Below the pieces are notes generated by a model, which worked only from the letters and a program-made list of their open reading frames with translations, did not search any database and was not told the DNA's origin. Shown piece by piece: positions 44,774-53,710 of a stretch of 64,000 nucleotides of DNA. The stretch is from an uncultured Fidelibacterota bacterium. Lineage in GTDB: Bacteria; Fidelibacterota; Marinisomatia; Marinisomatales; Marinisomataceae. The stretch lies in assembly GCA_902525615.1 (NCBI GenBank), contig CABZHT010000001.1, positions 50,813 to 114,812 of the forward strand, written 5' to 3'. How positions within the stretch are numbered: the stretch's first letter is position 1; the number at the start of each line of letters is the position of its first letter. Both the position numbers and the translations under genes were made by a program.

Positions 44774-45535
44774 TTATTTTTTTAGGCTTTTCACAAAATT
44801 TTCAACGACACCCTTTTTTCTATCTTTAAGTACTTTTTTTATGACTGCAGATCCAACCACAGCTCCATTTGAAAAACTATTAAACCATTCAACATCATCA
44901 TTTGAACTTATACCAAAACCTACCATAAATGGTGTTTCACTATTTTCTTTTACTTTTGCTAAGTAGTTTTCCAAATTATTTTTTGAACTTAAATCATTTC
45001 CGGTAATACCTAAAATACTAACAGCATATATTAGATCTCCTGCAAGTTTAGAAATCTTCTTAATTCTTTTTTCCGCAGTATTTGGAGCAACTAGAAGTAT
45101 CGGAGATATATTTTTGTCCTTTAAATTATTACAAAATTCTACAGATTCGTCCAGAGGTAAATCTGGAAGAATAACACCGTCTATTTCTGCATCTTTACAT
45201 TTTTTTATGAAATCCATAGTACCCATTTTAAGAATTGGATTATAATAACCCATTAGTGCAATAGGGACATCAGTTTGCCTTCTTATATCTTTTACTTGTT
45301 CAAAAATTTCAAGTAATGTAATACCATTTTTCAAAGCTATTTCATTCGCCTCTTGAATGACCGGACCATCTGCTTGAGGATCTGAAAAAGGAATACCTAT
45401 CTCAATCATATCGGCACCTCCTTTTATTGCTTCCAAAACTAAATCCTTTGTGCTATCTTTTTCTGGAAAACCTGCAGTAATAAATACAATTAATTTTTTA
45501 GAATCATTTGAAAAAAGTTGTTTTATTCTATTCAT
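44774..45535 (-). CDS. trpA: Tryptophan synthase alpha chain
   Basis: 253 aa. [15 protein letters not shown] motif. Confidence 0.95.
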
Positions 45536-46740
45536 AATTCGATTCCCAATTCCTTAGCAATGGTATTTATATCTTTGTCTCCTCTTCCAGATAAATTCAA
45601 AATAACATGTTCATTTTTTTTAATATTATTGTTTTTATTTTTTAAATAAGCAACAGCATGTGCAGTCTCTAAAGCTGGAATAATACCCTCTTTTTCTGAT
45701 AACCACTTGAATGCTTCTAATGCTTCGTTATCCGTTGCTGATGAATATTCAACTCTTTTTGTTTTTTGCAGATAACTGTGCTCTGGACCAATTCCTGGAT
45801 AATCCAAACCTGCGGACAGAGAATATGGTAAAGCAATTTGACCATCATTACTTTGGAGTAACATTGATGCTGCACCATGCAATACTCCAAATTCTCCCTT
45901 TGTAAGAGTGGCAGCATGCTGATTTGTGTCAATCCCTTTTCCTGCAGCTTCAACTCCAACTATTTTTACGTCATCATCAATAAATGGGTAAAATAATCCA
46001 AGTGCATTAGATCCACCGCCAACACATGCTACAAGCCTATCGGGTAATTCATTGTTTGTTATATCTTTAAATTGTTTTTTTGTTTCTGTACCAATTACAG
46101 ATTGAAAATCACGAACAAGCATTGGATATGGATGAGGTCCAACCGATGAGCCAATGATATAAAATGTATCTTCAACATTTGTCACCCAATCCCTTATTGC
46201 TTCATTGGTAGCATCTTTTAAAGTTTTAGACCCAGAAGTTACAGGAATAACTTTTGCTCCCATTAAATTAATTTTAAACACATTAAGCTTTTGGCGCTCA
46301 ATATCTTCCTCACCCATGTAAACAATACATTCTAAACCAAATTTAGCAGCTGCTGCTGCAGTAGCTACACCATGTTGCCCTGCTCCTGTTTCAGCTATGA
46401 TTCTTTTCTTTCCCATTTTACGTGCCAATAAAATTTGTCCAAGAGCATTATTTATTTTGTGTGCACCTGTATGATTTAAATCTTCTCTTTTAAGCCACAC
46501 ATTGAAACCTAGTTCTCCAGAAATATTTTTAGCTAAATAAAGTGGAGTTGGTCTACCTCCATAATATTTAAGCAAATTAAAAAATTCTTTTTGGAAATTT
46601 TTATCTTTTTTACTCTTAAAATATTCCTGCTCTAATTCATCCAATGCAGGAATAAGAGTTTCAGGAACATATTTTCCACCAAATTCTTCAAAATGCCCAT
46701 GTTTATCAGGCATATTATATTTTTTAACTAAACTATCCAA
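45532..46740 (-). CDS. trpB: Tryptophan synthase beta chain
   Basis: 402 aa. PLP-lysine motif HTGAHKINN and the GGGSNA motif. Confidence 0.97.
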
Positions 46741-47365
46741 AACTAAACTCCTTCTTTTTTGTTTGTTTTAAAATTTTGACAATCCTAAAGATTTTTGACT
46801 TACTTTTTAATCCAGGACTTTTTTCAACACCACTATTTATGTCAACTGCGTGAGGATTAATCTGATTAATACCATCTAAAATATTTTTCTCATTTAAACC
46901 CCCTGATAGTATGATTGGAAGATTGAATTTCACATTTTCAATCACTTTCCAATTAAAGATTTTACCAGTACCTCCAAATTGATTTTTTGTTCTATTATCG
47001 AGCAAAATTGCGTGTACATCATAATTTTTTATTACATTTAAATCACTTTTTTTTGAAACAGATAAAGCTTTTATGACCGGAACTTTGAAATTATTACAAA
47101 ATTCAGGTGTTTCATCTCCATGTAGCTGAATTGCATCAAGATTTAATTCATTTATGATATCATTGATAATATTTTCATTCTCATTTACAAAAATGCCAAT
47201 TTTTTTTAACCCAGAAGAACTCATGCTGATTTTTTTTGCATTTTCTATATCAACATATCTTGGGCTTTTATCATAAAATATCATGCCTATAGCAGATGCC
47301 CCAGCAGTTTTTGCATGCATAGCATCTTTATAATTAGTTATACCACAAATTTTTAAGTCAATCAT
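46733..47365 (-). CDS. trpF: Phosphoribosylanthranilate isomerase
   Basis: 210 aa. N-terminal KICGIT motif and QLHGDE. Confidence 0.9.
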
Positions 47366-48120
47366 AGCCCTTTAATAATTCTTTCAAGTTTTTTTCCAGG
47401 ATTATTACTTTTCATTAAAGATGTTCCCATAAGTATCGCATCATATCCCAGTTGTTCAACAATTTTTATTTTTTTAGTACTTTTAAAACCGCTTTCAGCA
47501 ACCTTAAGCGAATCTTTAGGTAGTTTTGGATAAAATCTCTCAAATCTTGAAAAATCAAGTTCCATTTTTTTTAAATTTCTACAATTAACGCCGACAATTG
47601 TTGGATTAAGCTCGTTAATAGTCAAAAGGTTTTTTCTATCGTGAATTTCTACCAATGTTTCCAATTTTTCATTTAATCCAAGGTTATAAAGGTCTGCCAA
47701 ATCATTGTAGTCCAAGGCTTCAGCAATTAATAAAAAAGCGTCAGAACCATGGCTCATTCCTTGTAAAATTTGTTTTTTACTTATGATAAAATCTTTTTGC
47801 ATAACAGGAATGTTCACTGCGTTTTTAATATCCTTTAAAAATTTAATATCACCATTAAAAAATCGTTTATCAGTTAGAACAGAAATAGCTGCAGCGCCAG
47901 CATTTTCATAATCTTTAGCAATTTGAATATGTTCACCTTTTTTAAGAATTATCCCTTCGCTTGGTGATGCAAATTTTATTTCTGCAATTATAGATATTTT
48001 GTCTCTTTTTAAAGCTTTTTTTAAACTGAGCCTTTTAAAGTTGGAGCTTTCTAAATGTATTTCAGGAATTTTCTCAATTTCTGTTTTTTTATGATTCAAA
48101 ATCTTATCTAAAATATTCAC
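47362..48120 (-). CDS. trpC: Indole-3-glycerol phosphate synthase
   Basis: 252 aa. IIAEIKFASPSEG motif and VGVNCRNL. Confidence 0.92.
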   Translation of the reverse strand: MNILDKILNHKKTEIEKIPEIHLESSNFKRLSLKKALKRDKISIIAEIKFASPSEGIILKKGEHIQIAKDYENAGAAAISVLTDKRFFNGDIKFLKDIKNAVNIPVMQKDFIISKKQILQGMSHGSDAFLLIAEALDYNDLADLYNLGLNEKLETLVEIHDRKNLLTINELNPTIVGVNCRNLKKMELDFSRFERFYPKLPKDSLKVAESGFKSTKKIKIVEQLGYDAILMGTSLMKSNNPGKKLERIIKGL

Positions 48121-49112
48121 TTTTGTATACCTTTCAATGCCTTAAGAGCCGATAAAGAATCGACTGATTCTTCCGCTAAAGAATAACCTTCTTTTAAAGA
48201 CGTTGCTTTACCTCCAACCATGATTCCTGCAGCGGCATTCAGCAAAACTATGTCTCTGTGAGGACCTTTTTTTCCATTTAAAATATCCAAAATAATTTTT
48301 GCATTAATATCTGAAGTACCTCCTTGTAAATCTTTATGTTTGGACAATGAAATTCCTATAGACTTTGGATCAAATTTTAAGTTGATAATTTTACTATCGT
48401 TTAAAAAATAAGAAATATTAGAATCACAAGTAGTGGTTAGCTCGTCAAGGCCATCATCTCCGTTAAAAACCATAACATTTTTTGAACCTAAATTTTTCAA
48501 AACTTGTGTTTGAATTTTAGTCAATGATGGTTCAAAAACCCCCATTGCTTGATTTTTAACATTTGCAGGATTGCATAATGGACCTAAAATATTGAAAACT
48601 GTTTTAATTTTTAATTTACTTCTAACATTCATAGCATTTTTTACAGCTGGATGAAAATTGGGAGCAAACATGAAACATATATTATTTTTTTCTAAACTTC
48701 GAATACAATTTTCATTTGATTTATTTATATCTACGTTCAATGCTTCAAGAACATCAGCTGAACCTGATTTTGATGTCATAGATCTATTACCATGTTTAGC
48801 TACCTTTATTCCTGCTCCAGCCACAACAATTGATGATGCAGTTGAAATATTAAATGTTCCAGAATAATCTCCGCCTGTACCACACATATCAATAGCAGAA
48901 AAATTAAGATCTAATTCAATCATAGTTTGTCGCATAGCTTTTGCAAAACCAGTTATTTCATCAACTGTTTCTCCTTTTGACCTTAAACCAACTAATAAAG
49001 CTGCAATTTGAATGTCATCTAGATTTCCTTTCATTAATTTTAGCATAATTTCAAAAGCTTCTTTCTCGTTAAGGTTTTCTTTTTTTACAACTTTTTTTAT
49101 TGATTCAATCAT
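48117..49112 (-). CDS. trpD: Anthranilate phosphoribosyltransferase
   Basis: 331 aa. CGTGGD and KHGNRS motifs. Confidence 0.95.
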   Translation of the reverse strand: MIESIKKVVKKENLNEKEAFEIMLKLMKGNLDDIQIAALLVGLRSKGETVDEITGFAKAMRQTMIELDLNFSAIDMCGTGGDYSGTFNISTASSIVVAGAGIKVAKHGNRSMTSKSGSADVLEALNVDINKSNENCIRSLEKNNICFMFAPNFHPAVKNAMNVRSKLKIKTVFNILGPLCNPANVKNQAMGVFEPSLTKIQTQVLKNLGSKNVMVFNGDDGLDELTTTCDSNISYFLNDSKIINLKFDPKSIGISLSKHKDLQGGTSDINAKIILDILNGKKGPHRDIVLLNAAAGIMVGGKATSLKEGYSLAEESVDSLSALKALKGIQK

Positions 49113-49676
49113 CTATATCTCCAAAAAATTTTTAATTATGGCTTTTCCGTCTTTTGTAGCAATCGATTCAGGGTGAAATTGAACTCCATAAAGATTTGAA
49201 GTCTTGTGTTTAAGCCCCATGATGGTTTTATTATCAGTTTCAGCAATTACTTTCAAGCAAGAAGGTAAAGAAGCTTTGTCAACAATAAGCGAATGATATC
49301 TAGTGGCATTAAAGCTATCATTTATACCTTTAAATAATTTTGAACCAAAATGATTAATATTTGAAACTTTACCATGCATAATTTTTTTCGCTTGAACTAT
49401 TTCACCACCAAAAGCATATCCAATTGCCTGATGTCCTAGACAAACACCTAATATTGGAACTTTTTGATAAAAATGTTGAATGACTTCAACAATATTTCCT
49501 GCGTTTTCAGGTTTTCCCGGTCCAGGAGAAATAACTATATGGGAAGGATTGATTTCTTTAACATTTTTTAAGGATGTTTCATTATTTCTTTTGGTAACAA
49601 TATCTTTCTTTATGTCACCAATATATTGCACAAGATTGTAAGTAAAGCTATCGTAGTTATCAATAACAAGTATCAT
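49113..49676 (-). CDS. trpG: Anthranilate synthase component II (glutamine amidotransferase)
   Basis: 187 aa. Triad context GVCLGHQ and QFHPES. Confidence 0.95.
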   Translation of the reverse strand: MILVIDNYDSFTYNLVQYIGDIKKDIVTKRNNETSLKNVKEINPSHIVISPGPGKPENAGNIVEVIQHFYQKVPILGVCLGHQAIGYAFGGEIVQAKKIMHGKVSNINHFGSKLFKGINDSFNATRYHSLIVDKASLPSCLKVIAETDNKTIMGLKHKTSNLYGVQFHPESIATKDGKAIIKNFLEI

Positions 49677-51154
49677 TTTATCAATCCATTTTCAGCAAGA
49701 TCAATTGCAGCATTCATGACTTTTGCTTTATTTACAGTTTCATCAAACTCTTTTGATGGAATCGAATCATAAACAATACCAGCTCCAGCTTGAAAGTATG
49801 CAATTTTGTTTTTTAAAATCATAGTTCTTATTGAAATGCAAGTGTTTAAGTTTCCGTTAAAATCTATAAAACCAATTGCTCCTGAAAAAATACCTCTACT
49901 ATCATTTTCTAATTCATTAATTATCTCCATTGCTCTAATTTTTGGTGCTCCTGAAACTGTCCCGGCAGGAAAACCACTTTTTAAAGCATCAAAAATGTTT
50001 TTATCTTTCATAAGTGTTCCTCTTACATCTGAAACGATATGCATCACATGTGAATACATCTCAATATTCATTTTTTCTTTAATTTTAACACTGTCAAATT
50101 CAGAGACTCTTCCAACATCATTTCTTCCTAAATCAAGCAACATCAAGTGTTCAGCTAATTCCTTTTTATCGTTTAATAAATCTTGAGCATTTTTTTCATC
50201 CTCTGCTGAATTTTTACCCCTCAATCTAGTACCAGCAATTGGACGAATTTCAATTTCACCTTCCTGTACTTTAATCATAAGCTCAGGAGAAGCACCAATA
50301 ACATCAAATGAATCAATTTTTAAATGGAACATATATGGTGAAGGATTAATAGACCTTAATGCTCTGTAAATATTTAAAGGTTCTGATAAGGTTTTTCTTT
50401 CAAATCTTTGACTCAAAACAACTTGAAAAATATCGCCAGACTTAACATATTTTTTTGCTTTATTTACAATTTTTTCAAATTCACTTTTTTTAAAGTTAGA
50501 GATTGTAGGAAATGATTTTGTGACTAATGGAGTTCTAAATTCATGATTCGAATGTAATAAATTTCCAATAGAATCAACTCTTGAATTAGCCTCATCAAAA
50601 AGTTCATTTAAATTTGTACTTCTTTCAAAATTTACGTTTGATACTGCAATAGCGTCGCCATTTAAGTGATCAAAAACAATTATGTCTTCAAAAAGCATAA
50701 ATTTTGAATCAGGTATTTGTAAATATTTCGTTTTTTTAACTGGAACATTTTCGAAAAAATCAATCATTTCATATCCAAAGTAACCAACAATTCCTCCTGT
50801 AAAATGTGGAAGTTGATTTAGTTTTTGGCTTTTATATGAATCATTTAAATTTTTCAAAAAATCAAAGAAGTTAGCATCTATTTTTTTTCGTTTACCATTA
50901 ATAACCTCAAATAAAGTCTTCTGGTCATATTCAAAAATTCTTGATGGATTTATGCCAACATAAGAATATCTGCCATTTTTCTTTGCTTTCTCCACAGATT
51001 CAAGAATGAATCCGTAATCGGAGTGCATTGATAAATTTGCCCAGGCTGCAGTAGGTGTAATCGTATCTGCCATTATTCTTTTGAAAAAAGGCACAACTTT
51101 TCTTCCATCTTTTGCAAGCAATTTAAATTCTTTTTTTGATAATTTATTTTTCAT
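49673..51154 (-). CDS. trpE: Anthranilate synthase component I
   Basis: 493 aa. GDIFQVVLSQRF and chorismate-binding C-terminal motifs (GAIGFIDFNGN, IRT). Confidence 0.95.
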   Translation of the reverse strand: MKNKLSKKEFKLLAKDGRKVVPFFKRIMADTITPTAAWANLSMHSDYGFILESVEKAKKNGRYSYVGINPSRIFEYDQKTLFEVINGKRKKIDANFFDFLKNLNDSYKSQKLNQLPHFTGGIVGYFGYEMIDFFENVPVKKTKYLQIPDSKFMLFEDIIVFDHLNGDAIAVSNVNFERSTNLNELFDEANSRVDSIGNLLHSNHEFRTPLVTKSFPTISNFKKSEFEKIVNKAKKYVKSGDIFQVVLSQRFERKTLSEPLNIYRALRSINPSPYMFHLKIDSFDVIGASPELMIKVQEGEIEIRPIAGTRLRGKNSAEDEKNAQDLLNDKKELAEHLMLLDLGRNDVGRVSEFDSVKIKEKMNIEMYSHVMHIVSDVRGTLMKDKNIFDALKSGFPAGTVSGAPKIRAMEIINELENDSRGIFSGAIGFIDFNGNLNTCISIRTMILKNKIAYFQAGAGIVYDSIPSKEFDETVNKAKVMNAAIDLAENGLIK

Positions 51155-51161
51155 TTTATGT

Positions 51162-51188
51162 AAAAAAAAACCCCGATAAACGGGGTTT
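51162..51188 (-). terminator. Attenuator terminator directly upstream of trpE
   Basis: Minus strand: AAACCCCG-TTTAT-CGGGGTTT, then T6 (9 T in a row in total), then ACATAAA-ATG. The hairpin ends 13 nt before the trpE start. Confidence 0.8.
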
Positions 51189-51214
51189 CAAAATCTTGTT
51201 TACATGAACTTGAC

Positions 51215-51274
51215 TTACAAGACAGATTCCCCGACTTGAAAATACCACTTCCATGTTTTTGAGTTATTTTTCAC
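51215..51274 (-). CDS. Candidate Trp leader peptide ORF (19 aa, GTG start): (M)KNNSKTWKWYFQVGESVL
   Basis: Not in ORF track. GTG AAA AAT AAC TCA AAA ACA TGG AAG TGG TAT TTT CAA GTC GGG GAA TCT GTC TTG TAA. Same length, same MKN start and same spacing to the terminator as the Phe/Tyr leader. Confidence 0.45.
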   Translation of the reverse strand: MKNNSKTWKWYFQVGESVL

Positions 51275-51280
51275 ACGAAA

Positions 51281-51309
51281 ATATTAAAACATAAAATAAA
51301 ATTTTGCAA
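51281..51309 (-). promoter_or_regulatory. Candidate sigma70-type promoter of the trp leader
   Basis: Minus strand: TTGCAA (51309-51304), 17 nt, TAATAT (51286-51281), then 6 nt to the GTG. The -35 starts 5 nt after the acylase stop codon. Sequence-only prediction. Confidence 0.35.
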
Positions 51310-51313
51310 ATAC

Positions 51314-53710
51314 TTATTTTGATTTGAATACTAATTTTGATGATTTTGAAGAATTTATAGCATCATAAGTAAACATAAATGGCTTGAATTCTCCTCTATT
51401 ATACATCTCTGTTTGATCACGATAATGTTTGGATCTAAATAATCCAGATTGCCCAGTTGGAAGTATGCTAAAACCATTATCAAAATCAGAAAAATCGATT
51501 ATTCTTCTCATTGAGGAACCTGCTCGAACATCAAAAGGCTTGCTAACAGAATAGCTTGCAGCTCTAGGAGTCATTTCTGATCCTGCCATTGGAAATGGTC
51601 CAACACTAAAATTTATTAATCTTTGAACCAGAGGATCTGCATCTAAATTATGCTCATAAGTAACTTGATGAACATCTCCCCATATAAGCTCTGAAGGATT
51701 TCCATATTTATCTTTAAGAAAAATAAATGCGTCTTCAAAAGACTTGTTCACAATATCGTTAAGGGTCTCTTTTTTAACAGTTTTTACATTATCAACCCAA
51801 AGATTAGTCTTACCATCAAAAATGTTTCTAATTGCTTGTGTTCTTATGTATTTAAGGCTATAGAATGTATCAAATGATCCATCACCAAAGCTCTGTAACT
51901 CATCTTGAAATATATTTTGAACAAGGTGAATATAAATTGCATGAAATGCAACAGCCCCTTTTGAATCTAATGATTCAACACCATCCCAATCTTTGAGCAT
52001 TTCATATATTTTATCAGCATTATCTGAAAAACCTAACAAATAGTTCTGAACAAAAAGTGGAGCGTATTGTTGGCCAAATGGAGCAGTTACTTCATTAAGA
52101 ATAGACTTCATATCTTCAGTTGATAATTTTATGTCCGTGTTTAATCTCCTATCAATTTGAGTAGCTCTACTAGGATCAGCCCAATATCTTGATATATAAT
52201 AAGGATATTCGTTACCAACAATTTTATTATTTCCGTTTGAAATATATCCTTTTTCAGGATTAAAAGAGAATGGCATTTCATCAAAGGAAATGTATCCTTG
52301 CCAATCATACTTAGTTGTGCTTCCATCAAAAGGAACAAGTTTATCAGCATCAAGTCTGATAGGAATTTTTGTACTTGGTCTCCATCCAATATTTCCATCT
52401 TTGTCAGCGTACGTCCAATTTTGTCCAGGAGCTCCAAACAACTTTGAAGCTTCATTAAAATCTTCCCAATTTCTTGCTTTTGCAAGCATAAATAAGCCAG
52501 TGGTTTCGTCAAACGCATCAAATTCTGTCCATCTAAATGATATAGCTTTATTCAAAGCTTTGGCGTCTCGATGAATTTCAGATATGATTGGACCTCTATG
52601 AGTAGATCTAATAATAATTTTGCTCTTTGAACCTGATTTAAGGACTAATTCTTCCTCAACAATAACTAAATCTCTCCATTCGCCATCTACGTAGTATTTT
52701 GTTTGATCTTCGTTAAGTGTTTCGATATAAAAATCCATATCATCAGTCATCACATTTGTAAAACCCCATCCAATATTTTCGTTATGTCCAATCACCGGAA
52801 GTGGGATACCATACAATCCATATCCTCCAAAATTATAATTATCACTTTTTAAACGAATCTCATACCACCAAGGAGGTAAATTATATGCTAAATGTGGATC
52901 ATTGGCTAATAAAGGCTTACCAGATGTAGTTTTTGTTCCAGAAACTGCCCATGCATTAGAACCATATCCATGTCTATCAGTTTTCAGTAAATTTCTCAAA
53001 TCTTCCGTATCGCTAGCGTACTGCTTAAATGATTTTAACAGAACGTCATTTGATGCAATGGTAACAAAATTTGGATCATATGATGGTAAGATTTCTGATA
53101 AATATTCTGGGCCAAGTTGTTCATTAATTGCTCCAAAAAATAATTCAGAATCCCATCCACCTTGTAGTTCCCATGCCATCATAGTGCTTAAAGCAACGAT
53201 ATCAAGTGGTTCAAAGACTGGAAGATCGTCTATTTGTAATAACTTAAACTCTAACGGATATTTAGATGGAGTGAGGCTTTGAACATAAGCGTTTATCCCG
53301 TAGCAGGTGTCTTCTAAATGCTTTAGTATATCTGCAGGAACTTTTTTTAAGGTTTTTTGGGCGATTTTTTCAAATCCTAATGTTCTCAAAAAACGATCTT
53401 CAGAAAATAAGGTATCATTTACAACATAACTGAGCTGGCCTTTATATGCATACTTCAAAAAAGCCATTTGAAACAATCTATCTCTTGCTCCTAGATAACC
53501 TGCAACTTTAAACATATCAGAATCGTTTTCAGCAAAAACACTTGGAACACCATAATCATCAAATAATACTTCAACATCATTTTGTAAAGATAGTTCTTGA
53601 TTTATTCCATCATATTTAACGTTGGCTGGTTTTAAAAAAGAATTGACGGAAAAATTAATTAAAATTATTAAAGTAATTGCAAAAAAAAGAACCTTATATA
53701 CCTTTCCCAT
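51314..53710 (-). CDS. Penicillin/cephalosporin/AHL acylase family protein (Ntn hydrolase, S45)
   Basis: 798 aa. N-terminal signal/anchor. Candidate autoprocessing nucleophile Ser in GYGSNAWAVSG, followed by LLANDPHL. Confidence 0.85.
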   Translation of the reverse strand: MGKVYKVLFFAITLIILINFSVNSFLKPANVKYDGINQELSLQNDVEVLFDDYGVPSVFAENDSDMFKVAGYLGARDRLFQMAFLKYAYKGQLSYVVNDTLFSEDRFLRTLGFEKIAQKTLKKVPADILKHLEDTCYGINAYVQSLTPSKYPLEFKLLQIDDLPVFEPLDIVALSTMMAWELQGGWDSELFFGAINEQLGPEYLSEILPSYDPNFVTIASNDVLLKSFKQYASDTEDLRNLLKTDRHGYGSNAWAVSGTKTTSGKPLLANDPHLAYNLPPWWYEIRLKSDNYNFGGYGLYGIPLPVIGHNENIGWGFTNVMTDDMDFYIETLNEDQTKYYVDGEWRDLVIVEEELVLKSGSKSKIIIRSTHRGPIISEIHRDAKALNKAISFRWTEFDAFDETTGLFMLAKARNWEDFNEASKLFGAPGQNWTYADKDGNIGWRPSTKIPIRLDADKLVPFDGSTTKYDWQGYISFDEMPFSFNPEKGYISNGNNKIVGNEYPYYISRYWADPSRATQIDRRLNTDIKLSTEDMKSILNEVTAPFGQQYAPLFVQNYLLGFSDNADKIYEMLKDWDGVESLDSKGAVAFHAIYIHLVQNIFQDELQSFGDGSFDTFYSLKYIRTQAIRNIFDGKTNLWVDNVKTVKKETLNDIVNKSFEDAFIFLKDKYGNPSELIWGDVHQVTYEHNLDADPLVQRLINFSVGPFPMAGSEMTPRAASYSVSKPFDVRAGSSMRRIIDFSDFDNGFSILPTGQSGLFRSKHYRDQTEMYNRGEFKPFMFTYDAINSSKSSKLVFKSK

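Follow-up and report, generated by a model that had tools for sequence, protein, structure and literature searches.

The Bacteroid-trp RNA, as it is described in Rfam, places a short open reading frame (ORF) containing Trp codons, together with a terminator, before trp genes. Bacteroidetes are the group for which this cis-regulatory element is listed (RF01692; Weinberg et al. 2010, PMC2864571). Leaderless leader peptides have been described in other groups: Deinococcus deserti has 14 predicted leaderless leader-peptide attenuators, including a trpEGD leader with its transcription start site (TSS) at -1 (PMC4007540), C. diphtheriae ilvB is preceded by a leaderless leader peptide (PMC5784534), and mycobacteria carry leaderless polycysteine upstream ORFs (bioRxiv 10.1101/834739). 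Here, we describe a leader region upstream of the trp operon in a 64,000-nucleotide (nt) stretch of DNA (the window; contig CABZHT010000001.1, positions 50,813 to 114,812) from an uncultured bacterium of the Marinimicrobia (SAR406; Fidelibacterota in the GTDB lineage). Judged from its sequence and from structure models, this leader is very probably a ribosome-mediated (leader-peptide) transcription attenuator of the trpEGDCFBA operon, which most likely would switch the operon on when Trp is short. A Trp attenuator had been proposed at this site in an earlier reading of the letters alone (the sequence-only reading); our analysis supports that interpretation, and the alternatives listed with it, tested where sequence allows, did not refute it. 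All positions are those of the whole window, and the leader and the trp operon lie on the minus strand.

The leader region consists of the 159 bases between the gene for a 798-aa penicillin-amidase-family acylase (stop TAA 51316-51314) and trpE, in which a promoter, a 19-codon ORF and a terminator follow one another before trpE and the rest of the complete trp operon. The ORF (GTG AAA AAT AAC TCA AAA ACA TGG AAG TGG TAT TTT CAA GTC GGG GAA TCT GTC TTG TAA) encodes M-KNNSKT-W-K-W-YFQVGESVL, with Trp codons at 51253-51251 and 51247-51245 (codons 8 and 10) and a UAA stop (TAA in the DNA) at 51217-51215. Every base and coordinate that the sequence-only reading gave for this GTG-started ORF at 51274 matches, and its statement that the region has only two TGG triplets, both in frame, is borne out: the intergenic region (IGR) contains exactly two (51253 and 51247), each in the GTG frame. 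At the Trp usage of this genome, the probability of at least two Trp residues among 18 codons is ~0.008. Beyond the Trp codons, a GGGG tract (51232-51229), which includes the GGG of Gly codon 15, starts 12 nt past the second UGG, and the combination TGG-N3-TGG-N12-GGGG occurs once in the window versus 0.01 times expected. GGG accounts for just 7% of Gly codons and GGGG for 0.6 occurrences per kb, and the presence of such rare elements argues for selection at the RNA level.

The terminator hairpin, (G)AAACCCCG-TTTAT-CGGGGTTT(T) in the DNA (51189-51167), starts 26 nt after the leader stop and leads into a T9 run (51170-51162), followed by 7 nt (ACATAAA) and the trpE ATG at 51154, an arrangement that had been read correctly from the letters. 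With just 7 nt between the U tract and the trpE ATG, no trp transcript can avoid crossing this terminator. No other terminator-like site occurs in 1.5 kb, and the whole 64 kb has just two other strong terminators.

The module is conserved in relatives. Our main comparison covered 19 distinct leaders, of which 12 belong to the clade of the window (TrpE 80-99% identical, the members at 80% and 83% having come via TrpE homologues and contig look-ups) and seven to a second clade, reached by the same route, where TrpE is ~60% identical to that of the window and a small chorismate mutase gene, not the acylase gene, precedes trpE. TrpE scans of genome and metagenome contigs returned near-identical relatives (92-99%) and Omnitrophota (43-49%) only; the IGRs of the close relatives are 96% identical to that of the window, and the Omnitrophota trpE loci have no such leader, trpE directly following another gene. 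The sequence-only reading had held that a lack of conservation of the in-frame Trp codons would speak against it; in-frame W-x-W is present in 19/19 distinct leaders, including the seven of the ~60%-identity clade, and the start codon is conserved within each clade.

All 12 window-clade leaders keep the GTG, both TGG codons and the 19-codon length. Column counts, made on nine of these 12 in alignment, gave no variable columns in the GTG start codon (0/3) or in the Trp codons (0/6), 9/18 in codons 2-7 with non-synonymous changes, 2/3 in codon 9, 3/30 from codon 11 to the stop, 15/25 in the spacer after the leader stop, and 3/23 in the terminator, all in the loop with the stem unchanged. Across the clade the non-Trp codons from 2 to 9 change non-synonymously, the ORF is free of indels and the spacer has them, and the GTG is unchanged though the two bases preceding it vary freely, which eases the weakness that the sequence-only reading had seen in a GTG start. 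Leaders of the second clade start with ATG, span 22 codons and contain W-x-W (e.g. MKYINTNNYYSWYWFFNQEGVS and MENINMNNFYSWYWYFYHNGVM); GGGG(UU) lies 14-15 nt past the second UGG, the stop comes 9-10 nt after the start of GGGG in 6/7, and a CCCC...GGGG-U9 terminator follows, usually 7 nt before trpE. ORF length is thus fixed at 19 or 22 codons with a sole exception (leader L029, discussed below), the gap between terminator and trpE ATG is 7 nt in 18/19 distinct sequences, and the terminator pairing is retained through a C-to-U change in L029 and in a AAGCCCCAA/UUGGGGUUU version in L027. In the second-clade leaders L025/L026 (2440-2500), 52 nt, not 7, separate the U tract from trpE, and the insert carries the inverted repeat GTGAAACCATTGAGTGGTTGTCAT. 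An out-of-frame ATG ORF in the window (ACATGG..., running through the terminator) was dropped as a candidate: it lacks Trp codons and is read in a frame other than the one that the second-clade ATG ORFs share.

Folding of the leader RNA (-33.2 kcal/mol, z = -4.0 versus shuffles), proposed as a check by the sequence-only reading, yields three mutually exclusive structures that appear in the expected order as the transcript grows. The minimum free energy (MFE) structure is a protector (anti-antiterminator, 1:2) at 73-85 nt, an antiterminator at 94-99 nt, and the protector plus the terminator at >=104 nt. In the protector, ACAUGGA(A)..UGG(U) (51256-51244), which includes both Trp codons, is predicted to pair with the post-stop segment 51214-51202 around a small hairpin, CAAG.CGG/CUG.CUUG (51238-51218), that ties up GGGG. 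It is predicted in 12/12 window-clade sequences, including L007 and L023, whose 3'-strand sequence is different, and 96% of its cells are paired versus 24-48% when the structure is slid along the alignment, with one-sided changes only.

Antiterminator folds were computed for 10 representatives of both clades after removal of the terminator 3' arm, which mimics the moment of decision. In the window, CGGGG (51233-51229) pairs with CCCCG (51185-51181) and UC (51226-51225) with GA (51189-51188), and a 7-bp inner helix joins GUCUUGU (51223-51217, its last base being the first of the stop codon) to ACAAGAU (51199-51193). The GGGG-CCCC pairing foreseen in the sequence-only reading therefore stands and its size does not, since the inner helix brings the total to 14 bp rather than 7. 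This structure is the MFE whether or not a ribosome occupies the Trp codons (-15.6 kcal/mol, z = -2.9, 2/300 shuffles as good) and is of equal or greater stability than the terminator (about -13 kcal/mol). The same topology, GGGG-CCCC plus an inner helix that includes the leader stop, is found in 10/10 representatives with differing inner-helix sequences (CAUAGUC with GACUAUG and variants in the second clade), at -13.7 to -25.0 kcal/mol versus -11.6 to -14.4 kcal/mol for the terminators. Compared with dinucleotide shuffles, z ranges from -1.6 to -4.2 and all four Cs are paired in 9/9 versus 14-45% of shuffles. RNAalifold of the second clade recovers the same antiterminator with 3 compensatory pairs (changed on both sides); MAFFT misaligns L027, the most divergent leader, and most 'broken' RNAalifold pairs stem from its row.

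These elements suggest the following mechanism. From the promoter TTGCAA-17-TAATAT, RNA polymerase would start on G51274 or beside it, giving a transcript that opens with the leader start codon, and a ribosome would translate the 19-codon ORF. With Trp-tRNA plentiful, the ribosome would reach the UAA, covering GGGG and the GUCUUGU strand; after its release the Trp-codon segment would re-pair with the post-stop segment as the protector, the free CCCCG arm would pair with CGGGG-U9, and transcription would end 7 nt before trpE. With Trp-tRNA scarce, the ribosome would stall with UGG codon 8 or 10 in its A site, holding the 5' strand of the protector and covering the CAAG of the small inner hairpin. 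A ribosome with a codon in the A site covers about 9-10 nt past that codon, and GGGG, which starts 12-15 nt past the second UGG in the two clades (12 nt in the window), would for that reason remain just outside it. GGGG and GUCUUGU could then pair with the emerging ACAAGAU and CCCC, the terminator would be blocked, and polymerase would read into trpE. Translation from the GUG, this ribosome geometry and the response to Trp are what we infer from the arrangement of the locus.

The promoter is conserved in both clades: in 14/15 distinct relatives a TTG precedes TAATAT by 17-18 nt, and TAATAT is identical in 14/15 distinct sequences while spacer and discriminator bases differ. Between TAATAT and the start codon lie 5-6 nt in the clade whose leaders begin with GTG and 7-8 nt in the one whose leaders begin with ATG. 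Because TAATAT sits this close to the start codon, transcription is expected to begin on or next to it, at or within 1-2 nt of G51274 in the window, which would make the leader mRNA leaderless; if so, the absence of a Shine-Dalgarno (SD) sequence at the leader ORF is accounted for, as a leaderless mRNA would need none.

Table 1. Positions of the trp leader elements and the trp operon in the 64,000-nt window.
Feature	Positions	Strand	Basis
-35-like TTGCAA	51304..51309	minus	Read directly; weak consensus match
-10 TAATAT	51281..51286	minus	17 nt after TTGCAA; 6 nt before leader GTG
Leader ORF, trpL-like, GTG start, 19 codons, (M)KNNSKTWKWYFQVGESVL + TAA	51215..51274	minus	Read directly; conservation
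Predicted protector (anti-antiterminator, 1:2) hairpin	51202..51256	minus	MFE of nascent 73-85-nt transcript
Predicted antiterminator	51181..51233	minus	MFE of transcript without terminator 3' arm
Intrinsic terminator, 9 bp (5 G-C), GAAACCCCG-UUUAU-CGGGGUUUU + U9	51162..51189	minus	Terminator scans; conservation
trpE-trpG-trpD-trpC-trpF-trpB-trpA	44774..51154	minus	NCBIfam equivalog hits, all 7 genes, E 1e-68 to 1e-186

Several observations weigh against the attenuator interpretation. The promoter keeps the sequence, coordinates and 17-nt and 6-nt spacings given in the sequence-only reading and falls short in sigma-70 strength: it agrees with the consensus at just 8/12 positions, and a sigma-70 scan of 1.5 kb, in which 8.3 promoter-like matches are expected by chance, did not list TTGCAA-17-TAATAT. 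We retain it because it is conserved, not because of its consensus match. A leaderless 5'-GUG start is poorly used in E. coli. In leader L029 (ena:ERZ27248816 k141_347051; 1178 upstream region), CAG replaces the leader stop TAG and the ORF without this stop extends for a further 28 codons, ending in the terminator loop; the close relative L035 keeps the TAG. The loss may have arisen in sequencing or assembly, or L029 may be a natural mutant, in which misregulation would be expected. The structures were derived from the same sequences that were used to assess them, and no base pair in the window clade changes on both sides (96-97% pairing, with the shuffle control equal to the observed values), so the pair counts of this clade say little. 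A common protector sought in the second clade was not consistently predicted there, the MFE structures differing between sequences. Finally, the antiterminator is the MFE structure at 94-99 nt even without a ribosome; termination in Trp-replete cells would therefore require either that the protector persist kinetically or that a ribosome sit at the stop codon.

Located 6.4 kb downstream, also on the minus strand, another attenuator of this build (44745-44604) stands between trpA and a chorismate-mutase-like ORF (probable ATG 44604) that is followed by a class II DAHP synthase gene (44344-43004). This Phe/Tyr leader (44732-44614) has TAAAAT, 6 nt, and an ATG (44732) opening the 19-codon ORF MKNFNYYYFYFRCKGTIGA, in which 7/8 consecutive codons specify Phe or Tyr; GGGGACUAUAG (from 44691) can pair with CUAUAGAAACCC of the terminator AAACCCTAACAA-aaa-TTGTTAGGGTTT + T9 (44646-44614), and GGAGG precedes the downstream ATG. 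The parallel drawn between the two leaders in the sequence-only reading is real: both have 19 codons, an M-K-N start and a GGG Gly codon 15 that pairs with the terminator 5' arm; in both, 26 nt separate the leader stop from the terminator, the terminator ends in U9, and a -10-like hexamer stands 6 nt upstream of the start codon. They differ in that the Phe/Tyr leader has F/Y codons (FNYYYFYF) in place of W-K-W, an ATG start, a 12-bp terminator stem and an SD sequence (GGAGG) before the downstream gene. The shared length, M-K-N and Gly15 suggest that the two arose by duplication. The trpE gene (ATG 51154) has no SD-like sequence (TTTTACATAAAATG), whereas the GGAGG of the gene after the Phe/Tyr leader is perfect.

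In 19/19 leaders, W-x-W is followed directly by [Tyr/Phe]-Phe (UAU/UUU UUU; 51244-51239 in the window), and the second-clade leaders are aromatic almost throughout (YYSWYWFF), with 7/8 consecutive codons aromatic. These Tyr/Phe codons may have been inherited from an ancestor shared with the Phe/Tyr leader, may be constrained at the RNA level, or may serve Tyr/Phe cross-control. The alternative that survives best, though we consider it unlikely, builds on them: the leader would sense aromatic amino acids broadly and not Trp alone, a stall at Tyr/Phe codons upstream of or at the Trp codons favouring readthrough and one at Tyr/Phe codons near GGGG favouring termination. The invariant W-x-W-[YF]-F, the run of aromatic codons in the second clade, where Tyr/Phe also precede W-x-W, and the common descent suggested by the length, first three codons and Gly15 shared with the Phe/Tyr leader all agree with it. 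However, U-rich Tyr/Phe codons may be kept for RNA reasons or as a relic of duplication, and those of the window clade end 6-9 nt before GGGG, so a stall there would not free GGGG. A wider proposal, which we regard as speculative and less likely than not, is that the aromatic pathway of Marinimicrobia uses a small family of paralogous leader-peptide attenuators without a 5' untranslated region (the Trp leader and the Phe/Tyr leader at 44732-44614), with transcription and translation starting at the same nucleotide (a 5'-GUG in the Trp leader) and the Tyr/Phe codons after W-x-W adding cross-pathway control. If true, a stall at these codons would cover GGGG and strengthen trp termination at Phe/Tyr shortage, sparing chorismate.

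A different possibility, to which we give very little weight, is that the terminator/antiterminator switch is real and is set not by a translating ribosome but by a TRAP-like RNA-binding protein, by uncharged tRNA in the manner of a T-box, or by a riboswitch for a small molecule, with an incidental ORF. Competing structures are not in themselves proof that a ribosome is the sensor, and translation of the leader ORF is a prediction. Against this, Rfam searches (the whole window at gathering scores, 50900-51600 at E <=10 and nine related loci at E <=1) found no T-box or riboswitch family, nor Trp_leader (RF00513) or Bacteroid-trp (RF01692), and the low-score returns were terminator-driven noise (asX2, rimP, and Phe_leader at 19.6 bits versus a gathering score of 55). 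The IGR has no GAG or UAG triplet and hence no TRAP-type repeat array. An ORF of fixed length without indels, with an unchanged start and in-frame W-x-W in two clades of differing sequence, argues for a translated leader, and the position of GGGG 12-15 nt past the second Trp codon fits the leading edge of a stalled ribosome.

Least probable of all is that the hairpin is a plain acylase terminator, that the small ORF and its Trp codons arose by chance, and that trpE is served by another promoter or by leaky readthrough: although the acylase stop is 125 nt upstream of the hairpin with no other terminator after the gene, and promoter-like hexamers are common by chance in AT-rich DNA (the 8.3 expected per 1.5 kb), the second clade keeps ORF, W-x-W, GGGG and terminator together before trpE behind a chorismate mutase, the 7 nt between U9 and the trpE ATG leave no space for a promoter, the Trp and start codons are unchanged while adjacent codons vary, and TGG-N3-TGG-N12-GGGG is expected 0.01 times per window. 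The alternative raised in the sequence-only reading, an acylase-only terminator with trpE transcribed from a missed promoter, fails on the first two of these points. The hairpin possibly has a dual role and also ends acylase transcripts, which is compatible with the attenuator.

The window has a GC content of 30.7%, and its TrpE shares 99% identity with the TrpE of a Candidatus Marinimicrobia single-cell genome, which places the window in this phylum. Adjacent trp genes are packed tightly, overlapping or abutting by 1-8 nt (junctions 49676-44774), so their translation may be coupled throughout the operon. Apart from those of the Trp and Phe/Tyr attenuators, which account for two of the three, strong U-tailed terminators are very rare in the 64 kb; the third (34615-34585, minus strand; AAAGGGCTACA-atat-TGTAGCCCTTT + T8, -16.3 kcal/mol) follows a coding region and lies 17 nt before a tRNA gene (34567-34495).

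To our knowledge, almost nothing is known about gene regulation in SAR406/Marinimicrobia (also Neomarinimicrobiota), an abundant, uncultured ocean phylum, and no attenuator or leader peptide from this group turned up in full-text literature searches. The leader is thus probably a textbook mechanism, in a leaderless form, in a phylum for which it had no prior description, and absent from Rfam. Understanding of the attenuation mechanism itself is unchanged; what the locus offers is a concrete, testable regulatory element for this phylum, and it would extend leader-peptide attenuation, probably leaderless, to a further branch of the FCB superphylum. The 19 distinct sequences from two clades, plus about 120 related TrpE proteins among the matches listed, could seed a new RNA family, and in metatranscriptomes the ratio of terminated-leader to trpE reads would report Trp limitation in situ.

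Among known systems, Bacteroid-trp comes from the same superphylum, Bacteroidetes and Marinimicrobia both belonging to FCB; its covariance model matches neither the window nor the nine related loci, a separation that is based on the model search. With the leaderless leaders of Deinococcus, Corynebacterium and mycobacteria, the Marinimicrobia leader shares a start at or within 1 nt of the TSS (here predicted), the lack of an SD sequence and an AUG or GUG at the 5' end; in those organisms the TSS was mapped by differential RNA sequencing, whereas here it is placed by promoter spacing, and the sequences are unrelated and from another phylum. Compared with E. coli trpL, the Trp codons are one codon apart (W-x-W) rather than adjacent, the leader starts with GTG, has no SD sequence and probably no 5' untranslated region, the 5' strand of the antiterminator falls within the ORF and takes in its stop codon, and there is no detectable homology in sequence or structure (no Rfam match at E <=10). 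The design is nonetheless that of E. coli trpL: a short leader ORF with two Trp codons, a 1:2 protector containing both of them, a 2:3 antiterminator and, immediately upstream of trpE, a 3:4 intrinsic terminator, with the outcome set by whether the ribosome stalls or runs through.

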